From positions 1 to 44,058 of the forward strand of contig JAWXCN010000201.1 of assembly GCA_034408725.1 (NCBI GenBank): a stretch of DNA of 44,058 nt, read 5' to 3'. The notes beneath the pieces were generated by a model, which was given only the letters and a program-made list of their open reading frames with translations, was not told the DNA's origin and did no database searches. This DNA comes from Candidatus Hydrogenedentota bacterium (GTDB lineage Bacteria > Hydrogenedentota > Hydrogenedentia > Hydrogenedentales > SLHB01). Each line of letters begins with the position of its first letter. Position 1 is the first letter of the stretch. The translations under genes were made by a program, and so were the position numbers. Below, one piece after another: positions 1,753 through 32,337 of the stretch.

Positions 1753-1797
1753 TTAGACAACTCGTAAATTGTACGTTATTTCTAACTTTTAAGTCAA
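1753..1797 (-). promoter_or_regulatory. Sigma70-type promoter (TTGACT-N18-TACAAT) flanked and overlapped by two imperfect TTAG-N7-CTAA boxes (candidate DtxR/MntR operator)
   Basis: Minus-strand -35 at 1797-1792 and -10 at 1773-1768; boxes ttagacaactcgtaa (1753-1767) and gtacgttatttctaa (1771-1785). Confidence 0.55.
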
Positions 1798-1919
1798 TGG
1801 GGAATTTAGATCTGTTGTAAGTTATTTATGCTAAGTAGCTTAGAGAAACAATGGGGGTGGGGTTTGTTTCTCGATCTGGAGACAATAAAAAGGCTTAACA
1901 TCGCCGCATTATTCAGCAT

Positions 1920-1948
1920 TTGCGATGCAACTATTCACGTGGTAGAAT
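1920..1948 (+). promoter_or_regulatory. Sigma70-type promoter TTGCGA-N17-TAGAAT with extended -10 (TG), no convincing downstream CDS
   Basis: ttgcga at 1920-1925, tg at 1940-1941, tagaat at 1943-1948. Confidence 0.45.
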
Positions 1949-1950
1949 TT

Positions 1951-2315
1951 ACACGCAGGTGAGGCGTACGGACCGACTTACCGAGCAGTTGATTCGTATT
2001 GCGTGGCCAGAGCCTGTGCAGGTAGACAGTAGTCGACCCCGACGACTACTGTCTCTTTTTTTCGTTCCGCCTCACCTACGCGCAGATAGACAGCTCTTTC
2101 CCGATTCGGATACCCCCGATAGGTACCTTTTCGACGGCATGACCATCCCCGATTGGCGGTCATGCCCGATTCAGAGTCAGCGGAGAGACGAGTCCCTGAA
2201 GCTTTCTGGCTGCAGTTACTCTTGGGGAAGGAGTGACTTGAGGTAGACTTGTATACAACCTCAGAGACTCGCCTCTCCAGCCTGAGCAAGACTCGTGTCG
2301 TCCTGTTCGACACGA
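1951..2315 (-). ncRNA. Candidate structured RNA (unassigned family) or structured 3' extension of the sigma/anti-sigma transcript
   Basis: Stems 2278-2257/2203-2182 (22 bp, 4 G-U) and 2083-2068/1966-1951 (16 bp, 3 G-U), plus hairpins at 2024-2054, 2136-2166 and 2293-2315. Confidence 0.5.
2024..2062 (+). terminator. Intrinsic terminator-like hairpin
   Basis: Perfect 12-bp stem agacagtagtcg/cgactactgtct followed by cttttttt. Confidence 0.6.
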
Positions 2316-23333: not shown

Positions 23334-24536
23334 TTACGCCGCATCAGGGGTATCGAGCACCTTGCGAATCTCATTTGCAAGCGCGGAAAGCCGGAACGGT
23401 TTCAATAAAAACGATTTCGCGCCCCCGGTCTCGAACAACTGGCTTGATACCAGTTCCTGTTCAAACCCCGTGCAGATGATAATGCGCATTTCAGGGCGCA
23501 GCGCCCGCAACCGCGGGAATGCGTCTGCCCCACCCATCACCGGCATGGACATGTCGAGCAGCGCGAGGTGGATCATGCCGTCGTGGCTCCCGGCGATTTC
23601 CACGGCTTCCTGCCCGTTCCGCGCGGTGAGCGTCGAATAGCCTAAACGCCGTAGCGTTTCCTGCGTCACTTCCAGAATCATGCGTTCGTCATCGACGATT
23701 AAAATCGTTTCGCCGCCGGCGGGCATCACCGCCGATGATATGGGTGCCGCGTCATCCCCGGCGTCAAGCGCCGGAAGATATACCCTGCACACCGTGCCTC
23801 TTCCAGGAAAACTGTTGAAGACCACTTGCCCATTGGCACTTTCGACTATTTTTCGCACCGTGGCAAGACCCTGGCCGGTTTTGTCCTCACGCGTCGTGAA
23901 ACCCGGCTCGAATATGCTAGCGAGGGTCTGCGGGTTCATACCCCCACCATCGTCTTCAATAGACAGCAGCACATACGGTCCGGCCCGGAGCGATGAGCCC
24001 TCTGGAATTGAATCCGAGTCCAGCACCAAATTCCGGGTGCGAATGGTTACGCGTCCTTTGCCGTTGAGCGCCTCGACCGCGTTGGTAGCGAGGTTGAGCG
24101 CCGCTTGCGAGATCGCCGTGTGCTCTGCCAGCACGCGCCACAAATCAGGATCGATGTGTCGAATGATCCGCACGCTCGGCGCAAGCTTTGTCTCTTCCAC
24201 GAGAAGCAGGTGGTAAACGATTGCGTTGAGATTGACGGGCTCGGGTTTTCGGGTACGGCCCTGTGTAACCGCGAGGATGCGTTGCGTTAGACTGCCGGCG
24301 AGTTCGGCGGCTTTCTCGATTGCTTCGAGAGTAGAGGCGCGGGACTGATCACCCTTGAGATCGTCCCGCAACAGCGCGACATTGCCGAGCACAGTCTCCA
24401 TCAGGTTATTGATGTCATGCGCAATGCCGCGCCCGGTCATTGCGATGGCTTCGAGCCGTTCGGCCTCTTGCGCCCGCTCCAATACTTCGCGAGGCGTGGC
24501 GCCCCTCATAGAATCCTGTTGCATTCGACCCCTCAC
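23334..24536 (-). CDS. Cytoplasmic hybrid histidine kinase (HisKA-HATPase-REC) with no sensor domain
   Basis: H-box GIAHDINNL, N-box NLATNAVEA, DDGGGM, IFEPGFTT, GQGL; receiver domain ILIVDDE...LLDMSMP...LKPF. Confidence 0.92.
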   Translation of the reverse strand: MRGRMQQDSMRGATPREVLERAQEAERLEAIAMTGRGIAHDINNLMETVLGNVALLRDDLKGDQSRASTLEAIEKAAELAGSLTQRILAVTQGRTRKPEPVNLNAIVYHLLLVEETKLAPSVRIIRHIDPDLWRVLAEHTAISQAALNLATNAVEALNGKGRVTIRTRNLVLDSDSIPEGSSLRAGPYVLLSIEDDGGGMNPQTLASIFEPGFTTREDKTGQGLATVRKIVESANGQVVFNSFPGRGTVCRVYLPALDAGDDAAPISSAVMPAGGETILIVDDERMILEVTQETLRRLGYSTLTARNGQEAVEIAGSHDGMIHLALLDMSMPVMGGADAFPRLRALRPEMRIIICTGFEQELVSSQLFETGGAKSFLLKPFRLSALANEIRKVLDTPDAA

Positions 24537-24677
24537 TCCACCGAAGAAAATGACCGCAAAACAAACCTGATCAGCGGGTTAGAACAGCGATAACGAAATT
24601 CGCACCGCGCGAATCATAGCATGGCCGCGCGCTGACTGCACCAATGGGAAGGACCTGCGAAGCGGGCAACCCGGCAC

Positions 24678-24929
24678 TTACCAACGAATAGAAAGCACAG
24701 AGTCTTGGTGGGCCGCTTCGGGAATCGAATTGACGGGGGTGGAACGCAACTGGCGCACAACGTCCACCAGCCATAGTCCACTGCATTCGTGCATAGAACC
24801 AGTCCATCCCTCTCTCAAAAGACGATCCAGTTCACGTTCGGCGCCGGCTTCTTCGCCGCGCCAACTGACCATCCGGCACGTGCGTTGGCCGGTGATACAC
24901 GGCATGTCGAGTATCTGCTTGGCGTTCAT
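24678..24929 (-). CDS. Hypothetical small protein (83 aa, MNAKQILDMP...)
   Basis: ATG at 24929 preceded by AGGA; this is the 3' part of the 24678..25109 ORF; no homology recognised. Confidence 0.45.
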   Translation of the reverse strand: MNAKQILDMPCITGQRTCRMVSWRGEEAGAERELDRLLREGWTGSMHECSGLWLVDVVRQLRSTPVNSIPEAAHQDSVLSIRW

Positions 24930-24954
24930 GGGACCATTCCTGCATGTATCAGCA

Positions 24955-25216
24955 GCTCCCAGGAGAGAGACCCTCCACAGATTGGGGCCTCCCCCCCGGG
25001 GAGCGGGCTTGGCTAAACTTTGAATACTGGCCGCCAGGCGAATCCCTCCGCCTGGCCAATCCACCACCGGCGACTGGCGTCGAGATCGCCTTTCTTCCCT
25101 CGCTGCCACAGGCCGCGGGAGACTTTGTCCCCCGGACCTGTGACCAGCGGTAAAACTGTCGTGCCTGAGGAGGTATTGGACAGTTAGAGGTACTGTTCTT
25201 GGTGTCGCCTCAGCAC
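24955..25216 (-). ncRNA. Candidate structured RNA or long structured intercistronic leader
   Basis: Hairpins 25004-24986/24972-24955 (18 bp, 4 G-U), 25056-25033 (10 bp, GGGA loop), 25144-25105 (18 bp, 3 G-U) and 25216-25161. Confidence 0.5.
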
Positions 25217-25217
25217 C

Positions 25218-25391
25218 TCAGAATCCGTGGATCAACAGCCGGACACCGATAGCGCTCGTCGCGATCACAATTACCAATAGCACCGCTTTGACCGGCATTC
25301 GCATTCCACGCCGACGCACCGGTCTCGTTCGAAACCCCGAATAGTGCACGTTCGCATCCAGTGCCAGAAGAGGTTGTTCAATTTTGCTCAT
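25218..25391 (-). CDS. Small membrane protein (57 aa, single C-terminal TM helix)
   Basis: GGAGG before ATG 25391; basic stretch RTRPVRRR followed by AVLLVIVIATSAIGVRLLI; overlaps the upstream ORF end. Confidence 0.6.
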   Translation of the reverse strand: MSKIEQPLLALDANVHYSGFRTRPVRRRGMRMPVKAVLLVIVIATSAIGVRLLIHGF

Positions 25392-25578
25392 CACACGAAA
25401 CCTCCCCTCGTTTTCCCGCCCCAACAATCGTTTCTTCTATCGCGCCCCAGTGTGTATGGCGCTGCTGGTCAATCTGCTGAATACCGTCCCGAAAACCTTG
25501 ACCTATCGCCGACATCAGCAATCGCTCTTCAACATCCATCTCGTGCAAGAGCGAACTGTTTTCCAGTGGTGTACCCAT
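25378..25578 (-). CDS. Hypothetical small protein (66 aa, MGTPLEN...)
   Basis: Tiles between its neighbours on the same strand; G-rich RBS-like sequence upstream; no homology recognised. Confidence 0.5.
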   Translation of the reverse strand: MGTPLENSSLLHEMDVEERLLMSAIGQGFRDGIQQIDQQRHTHWGAIEETIVGAGKRGEVSCDEQN

Positions 25579-25621
25579 CGCATGCCCCCGCACGAAACCT
25601 GTTTCGCCGTTAAGAACCAGG

Positions 25622-25810
25622 CTATGCGCGTTCCAGACAGAACGCTACATCGTGTTCCGGCACGTGGAGTAAATTGGCCGCCTGATTCAAATCCATGTCA
25701 ACCAGCGTCAACACACGCTTCATGTATTGGTTGCGAAACTCGCTCAGCGACAAGACCCGTTCCTCGGCGTTCTTGCTTGTTTGCCATCGCTCAGCCGTAT
25801 GATTTTTCAT
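25622..25810 (-). CDS. Stand-alone Fis/HTH_8-like microprotein (62 aa)
   Basis: GGAGG RBS; LSLSE..NQYMKRVL....DLNQAANLLHV aligns without gaps to the C-terminal HTH of the neighbouring activator. Confidence 0.7.
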   Translation of the reverse strand: MKNHTAERWQTSKNAEERVLSLSEFRNQYMKRVLTLVDMDLNQAANLLHVPEHDVAFCLERA

Positions 25811-25837
25811 CGTTCCAAATCCTCCGCTTTCTTAGGG

Positions 25838-25853
25838 AGCACTTTGCGTGCCA
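25838..25853 (-). promoter_or_regulatory. Sigma54 (-24/-12) promoter
   Basis: Minus strand reads TGGCACG-CAAA-GTGCT, one mismatch from TGGCACG-N4-TTGCW, and ends 27 nt before the ATG at 25810. Confidence 0.8.
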
Positions 25854-25960
25854 AGATAAGGATTTGAGTGGATGAAAAGTTTAAACTATTACAAATAGAC
25901 ACTTTAGAAGGTTAGTCGACCGGATTCCGGTAGGCAAGGTCACGACTGGCGCAAGGATGG

Positions 25961-26000
25961 AGTAAAGAAAATGTACAGGGGTTTGTCCAGAATCTTTACT
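25961..26000. promoter_or_regulatory. Candidate enhancer (UAS) pair for a sigma54 activator
   Basis: agtaaagaaaatgtaca (25961-25977) and an inverted copy tgtccagaatctttact (25984-26000; reverse complement agtaaagattctggaca), about 110-150 bp upstream of the sigma54 site. Confidence 0.6.
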
Positions 26001-26025
26001 GGCGCGTCCCTCGGCAAACAGTGCG

Positions 26026-27870
26026 CTACTCTTCGACGATTGCGTAGTCGTTGATTTTCTTGTAGAGGGTCACACGCGAAATTCGAAGCGCCTGGGCTGC
26101 GCTGCGGATATTCCATTTATGGCGCTTGAGAATGCGAACGATGTGGTGACGTTCGGCTTCGGAAAGCGTGAGCAAATGAGAACCGGAATCCGACTCACCT
26201 TTGGATTCGTTCGGCAGCACAATGTCGTCCGCTTCAATTTGTTCGCTCTGCGCGAGCGCTGCTGCGCGTTCGACGCAAGAGCGCAATTCGCGCACGTTGC
26301 CTGGCCAATCGTACACCATTAACTTGTCAACCGCGGCCTGCGAAAGCGAATGTACGCCATAGGGCGCCGCGCGTTGCATTCGTTTGAGAAAATGGTCTAC
26401 CAATTCGTTTATGTCCGATTTTCTGTCGCGCAATGGCGGCATCAAAATCACGACCCCACTCAACCGATGATAAAGATCGGGCCGAAACCACTTCGTGCTT
26501 TCCTTCGATCCGAGCGGACGATTGGTGGCCGTGACGATCCGGACGTCGACGGCTACCTCACGCGTACCCCCGACGCGATGGAACCGTCCACTCTCGATAA
26601 TTCGCAGAATTCGCGCCTGATTGTCGAGCGACAAGTCCCCCACCTCGTCTAAAAATAACGTACCGCCATGGGCGACCTCAAAGTGACCTGGCTTTTGCCG
26701 TGCCGCGCCGGTGAACGCGCCTTTCTCGTGTCCAAACATTTCGGTTTCAAACAATTCCCGAGGGATGGCCGCGGCATTGACAACCACATATGGGTTCTTT
26801 GCCCTGGGACTAAGATCGTGGATCATGCGTGCAAGAAGTTCTTTACCGGTCCCGGTTTCGCCCAGCACCATTACGGCCAGTTCCGATTTCGCGCTCCGGC
26901 CGGCGAGGTCACGCACCTCTTTCATTTTCGGACTTCCGCCAATCAGGCCGGGCGCGGCGCCGACGACTTCACACATGCGCGCCATATCACGGCGCAATTG
27001 CGCCGTTTGTTCCGCGGCCCGCAGGTAGGGTGTAAAAGTATGGGCAAGCGCGAGAAAAAATTCGAGATCGCCTTCATCGTAAATCCGGCGCGGCATGGCG
27101 CCACGCAGGGCCAGCGCGCCAATGCGCTCATCCGCGAGAATGAGCGGCGCGATGAGCACCGTCTCGATGACGTTCTTGCCCGATTCTGTGCGCCGCCGCG
27201 GCACGAGCATGCCGCTTTCCGTCCCGAGCGCGCGCTGGATATCAGATTCGGGCAGTGGCTCGCTTGGTACATCGCCCGGCAGCGGATCAGGCACCAGCTT
27301 TTTCTCGGAACCCACCAAGCGGACCAGCCACCACGCATCCGGTTCAAACCTGCGCATGAGCACACCCTTGAGACTCGCGAGCAATTCCGGCACGTCAGCG
27401 CACCGCGCAAACTCGCGATTAAATCGAAGGAGATCGCGAAACTCGGAAACCAGTGGTGGCGGCGTGGCGTCGTCTTTCGTGATCGATGGGTCCTGGATGA
27501 AAAATGCTTCCGAGAGAGAGAGGGTCGCCGGTGTTGAATCGGCAATGGGGGATCCGGAGGGATCAGACGCCAGGTCGATAAGGATTACGCGCAAGGAATA
27601 CGGACCGACCGTGACAACGTCGCCTTCCTTCAGAACGGAGTTCGCCACCTTCTTCCCATTCAATATGGTGTCGTTGCTGCTTTCAAGATCGCGTAAGTGC
27701 GGTGTGTCGCCGTCAACCCACACCTCGCAATGACGCCGTGAAATCGTGGCGTCCGCAATACGAATCGCGCATTCGCTGCTACGGCCAATGCACATGGTCT
27801 TGGCGGACAGGCCCCACGTCTTGCCAATGCTCGAACCTTTTGTGATCTGTAAAGCGAACTGCTTGCTCAT
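26026..27870 (-). CDS. Sigma54-dependent enhancer-binding protein with FHA and GAF domains
   Basis: FHA motifs IGRS, ISRRH and DLESSNDT; GAF-like region ending YDEGDLEF; GETGTGKE, GAFTGA, LFLDEVG, WPGNVREL; C-terminal Fis HTH. Confidence 0.96.
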   Translation of the reverse strand: MSKQFALQITKGSSIGKTWGLSAKTMCIGRSSECAIRIADATISRRHCEVWVDGDTPHLRDLESSNDTILNGKKVANSVLKEGDVVTVGPYSLRVILIDLASDPSGSPIADSTPATLSLSEAFFIQDPSITKDDATPPPLVSEFRDLLRFNREFARCADVPELLASLKGVLMRRFEPDAWWLVRLVGSEKKLVPDPLPGDVPSEPLPESDIQRALGTESGMLVPRRRTESGKNVIETVLIAPLILADERIGALALRGAMPRRIYDEGDLEFFLALAHTFTPYLRAAEQTAQLRRDMARMCEVVGAAPGLIGGSPKMKEVRDLAGRSAKSELAVMVLGETGTGKELLARMIHDLSPRAKNPYVVVNAAAIPRELFETEMFGHEKGAFTGAARQKPGHFEVAHGGTLFLDEVGDLSLDNQARILRIIESGRFHRVGGTREVAVDVRIVTATNRPLGSKESTKWFRPDLYHRLSGVVILMPPLRDRKSDINELVDHFLKRMQRAAPYGVHSLSQAAVDKLMVYDWPGNVRELRSCVERAAALAQSEQIEADDIVLPNESKGESDSGSHLLTLSEAERHHIVRILKRHKWNIRSAAQALRISRVTLYKKINDYAIVEE

Positions 27871-30080
27871 CGAGTTGGTCGTAACCCTCTTAACGGTTGT
27901 GCGATAAACGGCGAAAGAGCATTGTCACTGGCAATATCTTCCACCATGCGAGGTTCGGGATCACCGGCAGTGAAACTCCACAACTCGATCCCACGGATAC
28001 CGTCGTCAGCCGCAAAAAACAAATGACTATCGAATGGTGTAAGCGACGTTGGCTTCGCGCTCACCCTCGGGGTCGGCGAGAGGTCTTTAACAAGTTTCGT
28101 TCCGTACTCAAAACCATTGGTAACCCAGAGCTCCTCACCATGAGCGCCATCGTCGGCGCGAAAATACAGAAAATCTCCAAAAACCACAAGATCACGGGGA
28201 TTCGATGATGCTGCGCCCTCCGCAATGTCCCGAACCAACGTTATGGACGTTCCTTCCAATCTCTGCAGTTCTTCTCCGTGACTTGGCGTTCGGGCCCTGA
28301 AAATAATCATGCCCTTGTATTCAACAAGTTCGCGCGGTGTGGAAGACTCGCGCGATGGCGCGTAGTCCTGGACAAGGGTTGTGCCCGCCTCAGTTCCATT
28401 GCTTTGCCATAGTTCATCCCCATGCGTGGAATCGTACGCACCGAAATAAAGGGTCTCGCCCTTCGCCAATAAGTCGTGCGGATTGGAACTCGCCGTACCC
28501 GGTAAAATGTCGCGCACCATTTGCACTGCCGGAACGGAGATGCTGGTCATGACCCAGAGTTCATTGCCGTGTTCGAGATCATTTGCAACAAAAAAAAGTC
28601 TGCTTCCCGCCTTGGTGAGGTTATGCGGGGACGATGGTGGATTCGACACCTCCATGGTAAAGATGTCGTCGAGCAAGTACGTGCCGCCGGGCGTGCCGTC
28701 GCTGCGCCATAACTCAACTCCATGTTCGGGTGTCGTAGCATGAAAGTATGCCACTCCTTGGTGGACGATGGTTCCAAACGGCGCACTGTCGGTCGTGCCG
28801 GGATAAATGTCCTTAAGTAGGACGGTACCCCCCAGCGTTCCGTCGGAGAACCAGAGTTCTTCTCCATGCTCCATGTCTTCCGCGCAAAAAATCAGATTCC
28901 CATCGAAGGCGACGGGGCGGTACGGCTCAGATTGTTGTAGGCCCGGCCAGATGTCACGAAGTTGGAACGTCCCATCCGCTGTACCGTCCGTACACCACGG
29001 TTCGCGTCCGGCGCCGCGTCCGTTTGCGAAGAAAAAAACTCGCGGGCCACTGTGTACAAAATACCCCGGCTCAGATGAATCAAGTCCGGGATTGAGGTCC
29101 GCCACCATATACGTACCTTCAACTGTGCCATCTGTACGCCAGAGTTCGTCGCCGTGCATCGCGTCGGTGGCGTTAAACAAGGCAATATCATTAAACATTG
29201 AGAACGCTCCAAGACTGCCGTCCAAGGCGCCCTCGATTAACTCCTTGAATAATTTCGTCCCCTCTGCCGTTCCATCTGATTCCCAAAGTTCCCATCCCGT
29301 TTCAGGCGTCTTGGATTTCAAAAACAACTTGCCCCCCACAACACCGAGCGGCGAAGTGCCATCTTCCAGCGCTTTAATCAATTTGGTGCCCACCGCCGTG
29401 CCGTCGGTCGTCGCCAGGTAATATGTGCCTGCTTGGGATGGGCAATAGGCCATCAGTCCGTTCGGAAGCCGGAACGCCGAAGCACGGCCTGGGTTACTCC
29501 CCTCTTCACCTGCTTGCACATCAACAATCTCGTAGGTTCCGTCCTTCGTTCCATCGCTCCGCCATAACTCTTTACCGTGCTCAGCGCCTGTCGCTTCGAA
29601 ATAAGCTATACCATCATGGATTGACATCCACCCGAACGAATTGGGATGACCGCTTTGGTTTACCCCTATGTGAAACGTTCCGCCGGGCGTGCCGTCTGTA
29701 ACCCACAATTCCCTATTCGATGTGCGCGCGGCTGCGTCATCCATCGGCGAATCCGCTCGAAACAGTATTCGGGACCCCAGAGAAAAAAACTGATCTGGAT
29801 TGCCCGCGCGTTTTCCCGGGAAAATATCGTACAGCAGCTTTGCTCCTCCCGGCTTCCCGTTACTAATCCAAAGCTCCCGCCCGGAAGCTCCATCTTCGGC
29901 CGAAAACACTATCGAGTCACCCATCGGCGTAAAATCTTTGGGAGATGAAGAAGGCAATACGTCGCGAGCCGGTTCTCCGCCAGCGCCAATGACGCCCCAG
30001 ATCAGACAAGACAATATGACGTTAGCTGAACCTTTGGGAAATGTCGTTCTAGCGCGCATATCAGGACAACGGATGCTCAA
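27867..30080 (-). CDS. Exported ELWxxDGT-repeat (beta-propeller) protein
   Basis: About 14 repeats of G.ELW..DGT; N-terminal hydrophobic segment; exact start uncertain. Confidence 0.92.
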   Translation of the reverse strand: MSIRCPDMRARTTFPKGSANVILSCLIWGVIGAGGEPARDVLPSSSPKDFTPMGDSIVFSAEDGASGRELWISNGKPGGAKLLYDIFPGKRAGNPDQFFSLGSRILFRADSPMDDAAARTSNRELWVTDGTPGGTFHIGVNQSGHPNSFGWMSIHDGIAYFEATGAEHGKELWRSDGTKDGTYEIVDVQAGEEGSNPGRASAFRLPNGLMAYCPSQAGTYYLATTDGTAVGTKLIKALEDGTSPLGVVGGKLFLKSKTPETGWELWESDGTAEGTKLFKELIEGALDGSLGAFSMFNDIALFNATDAMHGDELWRTDGTVEGTYMVADLNPGLDSSEPGYFVHSGPRVFFFANGRGAGREPWCTDGTADGTFQLRDIWPGLQQSEPYRPVAFDGNLIFCAEDMEHGEELWFSDGTLGGTVLLKDIYPGTTDSAPFGTIVHQGVAYFHATTPEHGVELWRSDGTPGGTYLLDDIFTMEVSNPPSSPHNLTKAGSRLFFVANDLEHGNELWVMTSISVPAVQMVRDILPGTASSNPHDLLAKGETLYFGAYDSTHGDELWQSNGTEAGTTLVQDYAPSRESSTPRELVEYKGMIIFRARTPSHGEELQRLEGTSITLVRDIAEGAASSNPRDLVVFGDFLYFRADDGAHGEELWVTNGFEYGTKLVKDLSPTPRVSAKPTSLTPFDSHLFFAADDGIRGIELWSFTAGDPEPRMVEDIASDNALSPFIAQPLRGLRPTR

Positions 30081-32337
30081 AAGTTAGCAAGACACCATGT
30101 TCGGCAGCTGGAAAATCGGGATAACCCCATTGAACTACCGCGGTTTCTCCTTCCGCTCTGAGATCTACCAACATCGCGTTCATACGCCACACCGCTCCGA
30201 CATCGGCGCGGACAAATTTTTTGATCTGCTCGAGCGGAATCAGAATTTCTACCGACACACCGCTATCAAGTTTCGCCAACGCCATTTGCCAATTGCTCGT
30301 CCACTCAATCTCGCGGCCTTCAACGAATTGGTGCGTTGATTGCTCGTGCCCGAAATCCCGTGAAATGGTCATGCGGGACTGCATGTCAACCCGGCCGGGG
30401 AGCAATGGCATGAAGATCGACCGGAATCCCCACTCCGCGCGTGGCGCGTAGGGAATCTCGAAACCAAATCGCAACTGCTCGCTGGAAACATGTACACGCA
30501 TCGCTGCCTTGAAAGACGTTGGCCGGCCTGGAAGCAATCCTATCGGACCCGAGCTGTTATAATAGGTTTTCTTCCACGCGGGTTCGTCGAGCCGACCGTC
30601 TAACAAAATATCTCCCGTAACTCCCACGATTGGCGTCGCGCAACGCGCCTGGCTTATGCACGGCAACAATTCCTGAATCTCTTGCGCCCAGGTGTATCGC
30701 GTAGCGAGCTCGTGAAAAACCAAGGGCTGTAGTACGGGCGATGCTTCAAACGCATGCACAAACGCTGTGTCCGTCCCGCGTGCCGGCAACTCCACCGCGG
30801 AAACGGAAATAACCTGCGTTGACCGATCAAGGCCGTCTTCAAAGATAAGCGACAAATTCATGCTGCCGCGCGAAACCCAAAAGCCTTCACCCGAAACGAC
30901 TCCTGCTCTCAACCCGCTTGCTCTCGGCTGGCTGTATCCCGCCCAGTTTCCGGAAAGCGCAACAGCGCCTTCGTTCTGCTCTTGCAATCGGCAGACCATC
31001 ACGGATTGTTCGGCGATACCAATCAACTGGTACTCGCCGGAAGAAACAGGCGACAGTAGCCACCGGTCGGGACGCGCATCAAATTCGCCCGGGGTTGCGC
31101 CCGGACTGTCTGATTGCCTGGCTTTAATGTACCGCGCCTGAAATGACCGCGAAGCCTTGCCCGATTCGGTTCGCGCAAGGGCCAACAATTCATCCACGGT
31201 GACCAGCCGCGTTTTACCAACCTCATCTTGGGTCTTCAGTGGGACAATTGGGGTTGCAGCACCAACGCTTATGGTTTCAGATGGACCGTTTTGCATGGCA
31301 TACCATCCCACGCCGAGCCCAACCGCAAGCATCGTCACAGCGCCAAGCAATGGCCGCGCGAATCGTTCCGCAATACGTTTCCATCGCGCAAAACCACGCC
31401 TGCGCTCCACCCGATGCACAAAGGTCCGCACTGTGGGCGAATCTTTTCCGACCGTTTGCGCATACTCTGGAATCGCGCGCAAAAGTTCGATTGCTTCCAT
31501 CGCGGATTGAGGCCGGTCGGCGCTCTTGGATGAAATCAGCCGGTCAATGAGCGCTCCGAATGATTTAGACACAAGCGGCACCGCGTCTTCCGTCGAAACA
31601 ACTGTTGCCGTCATCATCTGCTTGACGATCGCAAGCGGCGTGGTCCCGTTATAAACTGGCTTGCCCGTCAATCCTTCGTAAAGTACAAGACCAAACGAAT
31701 ACAGGTCCCAGTCGGGAGTCGGCTCACCTCCCTCCCACGCCTCCGGTGGAGAAAACCGCGGAGTACCCATGAAATAGCCCGATGAACTTGTCCGGTAGAC
31801 CGTCGATTCAAGATGTCTTGCGTAGGCCGTCGCAAGTCCAAAATCCGCCAGCTTCGCGCGTCCATCAGGATTGAGCAGGACATTGTTCGGCTTGATATCG
31901 CGATGAATCACCCCATGAGCGTGGCACACCGCCAAACCCTCGAACACGTCCCGCGCTATCTGTACCGCGAACTGTGGCGTGAATACCTCGTGCTCGAGCG
32001 CCTCCCCAAGCGACGGGCCAGGCACATACTCCATGTCAATCGCGAGCTGGTTGTTTAACGTCTCCAACGAATTGATGCGCACCACATTCGGATGCAGGAT
32101 GCCCGCGACGATTTTCGCTTCCTGGCGGAAACGTTCCACGAAAACCGCGTCGCTGCTCAACGACGCGTAAAGCACCTTGAGAGCAATCTTCCGTGCCAGC
32201 GTCGTATCCTCGGCCAGATAAACCACACCCATCCCGCCGCGACCAAGCTCTCGCTCAATCACGTACTTACCGACGGAAGTCCCTGGCTCGAAGCCCGTAA
32301 CGTAAAGCGTTCCCACGATGTCCGCCCTGCTCCCCAT
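30061..32337 (-). CDS. Transmembrane Hanks-type Ser/Thr protein kinase with an extracytoplasmic region ending in a CBM9/DOMON-like domain
   Basis: LGRGGMGVVY, ALK, HRDIKPNN, DFG, GTPRF, DLYSFG; TM segment PLLGAVTMLAVGLGVGWYA; LDGRLDEPAW motif. Confidence 0.94.
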   Translation of the reverse strand: MGSRADIVGTLYVTGFEPGTSVGKYVIERELGRGGMGVVYLAEDTTLARKIALKVLYASLSSDAVFVERFRQEAKIVAGILHPNVVRINSLETLNNQLAIDMEYVPGPSLGEALEHEVFTPQFAVQIARDVFEGLAVCHAHGVIHRDIKPNNVLLNPDGRAKLADFGLATAYARHLESTVYRTSSSGYFMGTPRFSPPEAWEGGEPTPDWDLYSFGLVLYEGLTGKPVYNGTTPLAIVKQMMTATVVSTEDAVPLVSKSFGALIDRLISSKSADRPQSAMEAIELLRAIPEYAQTVGKDSPTVRTFVHRVERRRGFARWKRIAERFARPLLGAVTMLAVGLGVGWYAMQNGPSETISVGAATPIVPLKTQDEVGKTRLVTVDELLALARTESGKASRSFQARYIKARQSDSPGATPGEFDARPDRWLLSPVSSGEYQLIGIAEQSVMVCRLQEQNEGAVALSGNWAGYSQPRASGLRAGVVSGEGFWVSRGSMNLSLIFEDGLDRSTQVISVSAVELPARGTDTAFVHAFEASPVLQPLVFHELATRYTWAQEIQELLPCISQARCATPIVGVTGDILLDGRLDEPAWKKTYYNSSGPIGLLPGRPTSFKAAMRVHVSSEQLRFGFEIPYAPRAEWGFRSIFMPLLPGRVDMQSRMTISRDFGHEQSTHQFVEGREIEWTSNWQMALAKLDSGVSVEILIPLEQIKKFVRADVGAVWRMNAMLVDLRAEGETAVVQWGYPDFPAAEHGVLLTFEHPLS

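Follow-up and report, generated by a model that had tools for sequence, protein, structure and literature searches.

We analyzed a stretch of DNA from a Candidatus Hydrogenedentota bacterium, referred to below as the window (44,058 nt; positions 1 to 44,058 of the forward strand of contig JAWXCN010000201.1, assembly GCA_034408725.1), with respect to gene A, which encodes a small protein related to the C-terminal helix-turn-helix (HTH) domain of sigma-54 activators (bacterial enhancer-binding proteins; bEBPs). An original prediction, made from the sequence alone, had described the product (protein A) as a stand-alone mimic of the HTH of the neighboring activator, with a disabled recognition helix, that might inhibit this activator by forming a heterodimer with it. 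Gene A is very probably a real gene and the first cistron of a sigma-54-dependent operon, A-B-C-D, driven by the adjacent upstream activator through a promoter element and a palindrome (Table 1). The same gene order was found in four loci, namely, activator, palindrome, -24/-12 motif, A, B, C, a conserved hairpin, and D.

Table 1. Positions of genes and sequence elements in the window
Feature	Position	Strand	Description
Sigma-54 activator (bEBP)	26026..27870	minus	614 aa; FHA, GAF, Sigma54_activat, AAA_lid, C-terminal HTH_8
Candidate enhancer (upstream activating sequence; UAS)	25961..26000	none	Imperfect palindrome, 17-nt arms, 6-nt spacer; from repeat search
Sigma-54 type -24/-12 promoter element	25839..25853	minus	GG at 25852/25851, GC at 25840/25839
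Shine-Dalgarno-like GGAGG	25821-25825	minus	10 nt 5' of the gene A ATG; read from sequence
Gene A	25622..25810	minus	62-aa stand-alone degenerate Fis-type (HTH_8-like) protein; ATG start
Gene B	25378..25593	minus	Small soluble protein, ~66-71 aa (GTG start at 25593 or ATG start at 25578); four species
Gene C	25218..25391	minus	57 aa; conserved N-terminal motif, one hydrophobic C-terminal helix
GC-rich RNA hairpin between C and D	24951..25009	minus	29-nt block invariant in four species
Gene D	24678..24929	minus	83 aa, no known family; conserved in four species

The promoter element reads TGGCAC-GCAAA-GTGC (25853-25839) and lies 28 nt 5' of the gene A start codon. It is the sole match to TGGCAC-N6-TGC within the window; this pattern is loose, with 0.55 matches expected by chance and at least one match in 40 of 100 shuffled sequences, and a single match is not significant alone. 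The motif is kept at the matching place in three other species (G001, G002, and that of metagenome contig L072), in all of which the gene A open reading frame (ORF), the start region, and the gene order are also conserved, and purine-rich boxes align at the site of the Shine-Dalgarno-like sequence in the orthologous loci. The earlier proposal that gene A is the first gene after a sigma-54 promoter was supported; the promoter is conserved and adjoins the activator gene. The genome also encodes RpoN (Sigma54_DBD match in G000:C114, E = 4.1e-63), and a scan of both strands of 24300-26100 gave no sigma-70-like promoter. The palindrome is centered approximately 130 nt upstream of the -24 element. 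Equivalent palindromes with 16-nt arms occupy the same place in L002 (1268-1305) and L005 (3361-3399), and L072 likewise contains a TTTACA-N6-TGTACA core; the palindrome is likely to be the activator's enhancer. In L002 and L072, two of the four loci, genes A and B overlap; in the window, the start of gene C overlaps the end of gene B by 14 nt, and no terminator-like site was found on the minus strand in 24300-26100. These gene boundaries suggest that A-B-C-D form one transcription unit.

The activator matched the Pfam families Sigma54_activat (E = 1.4e-61), FHA (E = 6.8e-17), HTH_8 (E = 1.5e-10), and GAF_2 (E = 6.3e-4), and has orthologues with 61% and 57% identity in two species of the same genus. 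Upstream of it are the genes of a 737-residue repeat protein without a Pfam match (27867-30080, minus strand), whose stop overlaps the activator start, and of a Ser/Thr kinase (30061-32337, minus strand; Pkinase match with E = 5e-46), which overlaps the repeat protein gene. The 4-nt overlap with the activator start is present also in G001 (L004). Since the three frames overlap, the activator is probably cotranscribed with the kinase, which fits its FHA domain, and the arrangement suggests a kinase-repeat protein-activator operon.

A word-indexed search of 5.8 billion protein clusters with the single sequence of protein A matched only the protein itself, and a six-frame search of 61 related genomes gave one weak match (E = 0.005), which lies directly downstream of the activator orthologue with 61% identity in a congeneric species. 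The third species, whose activator is 57% identical, carries an equivalent 57-aa ORF, and metagenome contig L072 encodes a protein 54% identical to protein A at the same position. L072 was obtained by searching metagenome contigs with the three closest gene A sequences, which otherwise returned the window's own sequence; the genome contigs searched with the same three sequences gave no match. A match in a phage-like metagenome contig (L073) was discarded as chance. Gene A is under purifying selection: in the closest pair, the proportion of nonsynonymous differences (pN) was 0.26 against 0.74 for synonymous ones (pS), corresponding to a ratio of nonsynonymous to synonymous substitution rates (dN/dS) of about 0.11 over 38 core codons, and synonymous sites are saturated between most pairs of the four species. 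Eight sequencing runs, all of DNA from microbial mat metagenomes, are tied to the locus. Antisense to genes A and B runs a 163-codon ORF (25384-25875, plus strand), for which no support was found; it probably results from the GC-rich coding sequence on the other strand.

Fold and family of protein A

Both profile and structure comparisons predicted a three-helix Fis-type fold for protein A, the lack of which would have spoken against the original prediction. In a model obtained with AlphaFold2 (AF2) from 111 homologues, the N-terminal 20 residues are disordered and are followed by helices at residues 22-36, 41-48, and 52-61, with a predicted local distance difference test (pLDDT) score of 75 overall and 85-90 in the core. 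A profile built from nine family sequences matched the DNA-binding domain of PrrA/RegA (1umq, E = 2.6e-7) and that of NtrC4 (3e7l, E = 0.0015; 4fth, E = 0.0019). In a Foldseek search, the top rows were NtrC1, NtrC4, PrrA, ZraR, and Fis, which are without exception Fis-type domains, all at E values of 0.067 or higher, as is to be expected with about 45 residues. Furthermore, the NtrC1 DNA-binding domain superposes on protein A with a root mean square deviation of 1.0 Å over 42-44 residues, and the VIA-align Z scores were 6.5 for ZraR, 6.4 for NtrC1, and 6.3 for Fis, which are middling in absolute terms for a small domain.

The gapless alignment between gene A and the activator, on which the original prediction was built, was recovered by BLASTP (residues 19-50 against residues 566-597 of the 614-aa activator; 9 of 32 identical), with an E value of 0.022 that refers to that one comparison and is weak alone. 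When a 14-sequence subfamily around protein A was compared with 13 activator C termini by hhalign, the two aligned over 43 gapless columns (83% probability, E = 9.1e-6) in the register first noticed for gene A and the activator. A hidden Markov model (HMM) search against Pfam HTH_8 (PF02954), suggested earlier as a check, had a negative outcome: protein A gave no match at E <= 1, and none was obtained at E <= 10 with two genus orthologues included, so that protein A lies below membership of this family, the gathering score of which is 22 bits. Protein A is also unrecognized by NCBIfam. Taken together, we are highly confident that protein A consists of a disordered tail and one Fis-type three-helix domain, and that it belongs to a sigma-54-controlled family of mini-HTH_8 proteins encoded behind FHA-type activators.

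The family was delineated by an exhaustive HMMER search with the nine-row profile, which returned 579 cluster representatives at E <= 1e-3, 25 of them at E <= 1e-10. Among the best 150 representatives, 111 are 125 aa or shorter, and 65 of these 111 small homologues match Pfam HTH_8 (E <= 0.01). The 14 members of the tight subfamily are 57-65 aa long, the exception being a 93-aa entry whose start is probably misassigned; they stop directly after helix 3 and share seven invariant residues (Leu22, Phe25, Tyr29, Arg32, Val33, Asp40, and Leu48). These 14 were the only subfamily proteins found by a profile search of the 5.8-billion-cluster collection, and none contains a Pfam domain; the two named entries are both annotated as "hypothetical protein." In the wider family, two members are assigned to Candidatus Hydrogenedentes by their source names, which include [quoted passage not shown] and 66- to 67-aa proteins bear clearly automatic labels, e.g., "transcriptional regulator with PAS, ATPase and Fis domain." Within the phylum of the window, the subfamily profile matched 14 of 135 genomes (E <= 1e-4), and the 16 places listed there comprise 11 small open frames and five C termini of AAA+ proteins of 539-577 aa.

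We then considered the genomic surroundings of 19 loci in 17 genomes, i.e., the 22 loci with strong small-frame matches minus three with a canonical helix 3 (L055, L056, and L057); the 19 loci are related to one another and hence are not independent. An activator gene on the same strand ends 218-381 nt upstream of the stand-alone mini-HTH gene in 12 of the 19; a location of homologues beside bEBP genes had been suggested as a check of the original prediction. A -24/-12 motif is present within 300 nt upstream of the mini-HTH gene in 13 of the 19 loci. As background, a scan of both window strands with this regular expression, covering 88,116 positions, gave 9 matches, or about 0.03 per 310 nt. 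Eight neighboring activators were scanned, seven captured from the family loci (L077 was left out) and the G002 orthologue; all eight contain FHA, Sigma54_activat, AAA_lid, and HTH_8, and seven contain GAF_2 (E <= 1e-4). By contrast, the genes 3' of the mini-HTH gene vary: B-C-D in the genus of the window, another type in two G033 loci, and a gene for a Trp-rich small protein in five loci (L013, L020, L021, L023, and L029). As the downstream genes differ by lineage, the constant pair is the FHA-type activator and the mini-HTH protein.

Several further features of the family loci were observed. The Trp-rich protein, found in other genera, is conserved, has about 65-80 aa with a motif of the type WW-L/M-T-T/W-F-K/R-G-Y, and gave no Pfam match in the one member scanned. 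In L023, a second ORF in an overlapping frame 3' of the mini-HTH gene (approximately 1790-2185, plus strand) contains a degenerate HTH-like stretch (Ala-Ala-Lys-Ala-Leu-Gly-Ile-Glu...Leu-Arg-Gly-Trp). L014-L019 and L038 (genus g4 and others) encode 530- to 577-aa AAA+ activators with a C-terminal HTH, the first helix of which is nearer to the Phe-Arg-x-Gln-Tyr helix of the subfamily than that of the neighboring FHA-type activator is; activators of this type may be the closest long-protein relatives of the domain.

DNA-contact residues of the family

It had been noted that the seven residues of protein A that replace RVTLYKK of the activator contain no Arg or Lys, and that the recognition helix would thereby be disabled. 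This observation held, and the loss of contact residues proved to be a systematic trait of the family. The activator C-terminal profile aligns gaplessly to Fis residues 51-97, which pairs the conserved turn Asn of the activators with Fis Asn73 and, within their Ser-Arg-x-Thr-Leu-Tyr-x-Lys helix, Arg with Arg85, Thr with Thr87, and Lys with Lys90; profile positions and residue numbers differed by one, which was resolved with the Fis numbering. Thr87 and Lys90 of Fis have DNA-contact roles. At the four equivalent positions, protein A has Asp40, Glu52, Asp54, and Phe57. In a study on Fis (PMC4784862), binding to DNA is attributed to Asn73, Arg85, and neighboring residues, with Asn73 contacting two phosphates and the N73A substitution lowering affinity 140-fold.

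The same replacements recur in the wider family, where Asn73 is exchanged for Asp, Arg85 for Val, Pro, or Glu, and Thr87 for Glu or Asp. Every subfamily member has Asp40, the residue that pairs with the activators' conserved Asn. Only 10 of the 111 small homologues keep both Arg or Lys and Thr or Ser at the Arg85 and Thr87 positions; Glu or Asp is found at the Thr87 position in 69, and the Arg85 position is occupied by Val in 30, Pro in 19, and Arg in 13. Helix 3 has a mean net charge that decreases from +2.4 in canonical members to +0.2 in other Glu/Asp types and -1.4 in the subfamily, which lacks both the Arg-Arg pair of helix 3 and the basic N-terminal tails of the wider family. From this residue pattern, it is rather likely that protein A does not bind DNA in the manner of Fis or NtrC.

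Relationship of protein A to the activator

We tentatively favor the reading that protein A is a protein-binding regulatory module that exerts feedback, most likely of negative sign, on the circuit of its activator, although "plausible" describes its standing better than "probable." Once the activator fires, protein A would accumulate, and further activation would be damped. The leading specific version of this feedback is a pairing of protein A with the activator HTH, by which the palindromic enhancer would no longer be bound by two good half-sites; this HTH-HTH decoy is in itself quite unlikely. In a more general form, which we consider doubtful, each FHA-type activator would induce an acidic decoy HTH as its first operon product, and the decoy would bind the activator, by capping the DNA-binding domain or docking elsewhere, and shut the circuit down. 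Under the inducing condition, the cotranscribed small soluble and membrane proteins (B and C) might sequester the decoy, giving a Psp-like switch made from unrelated parts.

The proposed heterodimer was examined by complex prediction, using the last 56 residues of the activator and residues 15-62 of protein A, each with its alignment. The pair reached an interface score (ipSAE) of 0.45, compared with 0.00 for the best of three controls, three runs agreed in at least 90% of contacts, and the pLDDT of the partner was at least 74. In calibration, 116 of 157 solved complexes and 2 of 215 mismatched pairs attained the pass mark; those that did so with scores of 0.60 or lower comprised only 18 of the 157 solved complexes and both passing mismatches, and these counts hold roughly, as own alignments were used for the prediction with protein A and the activator. 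The result thus lends the heterodimer weak support.

Several observations weigh against a feedback of this kind. Since HTH_8 homodimers have already been solved, the pass in complex prediction may reflect only the likeness of the two domains; besides, Pfam HTH_8 does not match protein A itself. The heterodimer was premised on Fis-type domains dimerizing via their first helices, a premise that does not fit this activator: in an AF2 model of its last 85 aa, residues 12-39 form a disordered, low-pLDDT coil or linker and are followed by three helices, with no helix A. According to PMC10590331, the DNA-binding domains belonging to sigma-54 activators without helix A (NtrC1 and NifA) are monomeric without DNA, and only those bearing helix A (NtrC and NtrC4) dimerize stably. 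Therefore, a free decoy would have little interface to exploit.

Nor is protein A especially similar to the activator beside it. In a 12 by 12 comparison over 53 columns, cognate pairs of mini-HTH and activator HTH shared 13.3 identities, compared with 12.7 for noncognate pairs (permutation P = 0.31), and within the genome of the window, the family profile matched the C termini of three other activators (E <= 0.03) and not that of the neighbor (E <= 1). We found no signal, by either measure, for protein A as a recent duplicate of the neighbor's HTH or as coevolving with it. The description of protein A as a mimic of the activator's HTH therefore holds in that it has a Fis-type HTH in the same register, but is too specific, since protein A is not nearer to its own neighbor than to other activators; in the absence of cognate-specific likeness, protein A is an old paralogue of the domain and not a copy of the neighbor's.

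This lack of likeness is also in line with the possibility, which we judge somewhat unlikely, that protein A works with B, with the membrane protein C, with D, or with another cellular target, the HTH serving as a compact protein-binding scaffold. A-B-C-D are kept as a unit in four species, with stops and starts that overlap or abut and no terminator-like site between the genes on the minus strand. Genes of bEBPs often adjoin their target operons, and gene A might lie beside the activator simply because the operon is the activator's target. However, the downstream genes differ across genera and the pair of activator and mini-HTH persists, which suggests that the constant partner is the activator or the promoter.

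It is also possible, but unlikely, that protein A is still a nucleic acid-binding regulator, either as a second-tier transcription factor or by competing for the activator's enhancer, which would act through a noncanonical surface or the arginines of helix 1. Its fold is an HTH, the match of 65 of the 111 small homologues to Pfam HTH_8 accords with such a role, and the subfamily conserves Arg26 and Arg32. In the wider family, most members keep the Arg-Arg pair in helix 3, and some have N-terminal tails that are strongly basic, so that members of the wider family may bind DNA or RNA, a further point against protein A acting by protein binding. On the other hand, the subfamily is acidic, with a helix 3 net charge of -3 to 0 and an average of -1.9 for whole proteins. 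At the positions of Fis Asn73, Arg85, and Thr87, protein A carries Asp, Glu, and Asp, and acids in place of phosphate and base contacts are the opposite of what selection for DNA binding would give (roles of Arg85 and Asn73 as reported in PMC4784862).

An opposite sign of the feedback, with protein A as a positive cofactor that binds the HTH or another domain of the activator and aids enhancer assembly or release, appears improbable. The linkage data and the weak complex pass (0.45 compared with 0.00) would suit it equally, as they do not indicate the sign of the effect. However, PspA and HrpV are inhibitors of bEBPs, we know of no precedent for a positive small cofactor of these activators, and the lost DNA contacts suit a decoy better than a helper. 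FleN and NifL, the known small bEBP partners retrieved by the literature search, are inhibitors as well. Finally, it is highly improbable that gene A is a nonfunctional leader or chance ORF at the 5' end of a B-C-D transcript: it has no Pfam match and its single-sequence search gave one cluster, but the ORF and its hydrophobic pattern are kept in four species despite saturated synonymous sites, dN/dS is 0.11 in the closest pair, the subfamily has 14 members with seven invariant residues, the three-helix model is confident, and the mini-HTH_8 family recurs behind sigma-54 promoters (17 genomes).

Returning to feedback on the activator, we compared protein A with known systems. Like the DNA-binding domains of NtrC1/ZraR-type activators, it has three helices in a Fis-type fold, preceded by a disordered stretch, and lacks helix A. 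Unlike these, it is a free-standing protein without an attached AAA+ ring; the turn Asn of activator domains is replaced by Asp and the Ser-Arg-x-Thr at the start of helix 3 by Pro-Glu-His-Asp, and protein A is acidic, is missed by Pfam HTH_8, and ends right after helix 3. Fis is likewise a small stand-alone protein, the C-terminal half of which has the same HTH fold (Z = 6.3). In Fis, however, helices A and B form an intertwined dimer (PMC4784862), and protein A has neither helix A nor the DNA-binding residues of Fis.

As regards regulation, there is a parallel with circuits in which an operon product restrains its activator. PspA is encoded by the first gene of a PspF-dependent operon that also encodes small membrane proteins, and it inhibits PspF. 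As in the circuit proposed here, a product of the target operon binds the activator and limits output, and small membrane proteins are encoded alongside (in our locus, probably the product of gene C). PspA, NifL, FleN, and HrpV, which act on PspF, NifA, FleQ, and HrpS, respectively, have no sequence or fold relationship to protein A, which gave no Pfam or NCBIfam match to these anti-activator families. To our knowledge, none of the known bEBP anti-activators copies the DNA-binding domain of an activator. NifL, FleN, and other anti-activators are known to act on the AAA+ domain or via dedicated sensor domains.

The principle of a small transcription factor relative that is unable to bind DNA and forms a nonproductive complex is known from SinI-SinR, Id, and LITTLE ZIPPER proteins, and the SinI-SinR pair and the eukaryotic microProteins thus follow the principle proposed for protein A. 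SinI, however, copies the oligomerization helices of SinR, whereas the related part of protein A is the DNA-binding domain itself, which in activators lacking helix A is not a stable dimerization module (PMC10590331). In open-access full texts on sigma-54 anti-activators and HTH_8, we found no stand-alone HTH_8 partner of bEBPs described and no known bEBP inhibitor that is an HTH copy; HTH_8 was mentioned only as a domain of activators (PMC3162934). An anti-activator role of protein A, which is plausible from the genomic context, the lost contact residues, and the weak complex prediction, would be of a new kind.

If this role is true, protein A would represent a new class of anti-activator, the first to mimic the activator's own DNA-binding domain, and by acting on the activator it would provide feedback in the style of a microprotein, a principle well known in plants and animals and rare in bacteria. 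If it does not act on the activator, the locus is still a conserved sigma-54 regulon of four small proteins and an RNA hairpin downstream of a Ser/Thr kinase/FHA route. In either case, the locus reveals a recurrent, unannotated, Pfam-invisible partner of FHA-type activators, encoded by the first sigma-54-induced gene beside the activator, in a little-studied and mostly uncultured phylum. Sigma-54 activators are a main model for enhancer-dependent transcription in bacteria, and the module is small enough for reporter testing in Escherichia coli.

Downstream genes and the RNA hairpin

Gene B has ORFs at the matching position in L002, L005, and L072 and gave no Pfam or NCBIfam match to any known family. 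The product of gene C, for which no Pfam match was found, is likely a single-pass membrane protein, as predicted from its hydrophobic helix. Gene D gave no meaningful match in Pfam or NCBIfam, and a search of the ESM Atlas with the products of B and D returned no usable feature matches and structural neighbors that were below threshold. A hybrid histidine kinase/receiver protein (HisKA, HATPase_c, and Response_reg; 23334-24536, minus strand) starts approximately 140 nt downstream of gene D; none was seen at the equivalent place in G001.

The hairpin between C and D comprises about 20 bp and lies 20-30 nt upstream of gene D. Its flanks have diverged across the four species, three of its pairs show G-U/G-C switches, and its counterparts are located at approximately 2296-2355 in L002, 4306-4365 in L005, and 2040-2100 in L072. 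An Rfam scan of 24400-26100, including the hairpin, gave no match at E <= 1, and the possibility that the hairpin is a genomic repeat was rejected, since the genome has only one copy of it. In the operon, it may serve as a cis-regulatory or processing element. Upstream of the hairpin, the C-D spacer contains further conserved blocks, including a short inverted repeat.

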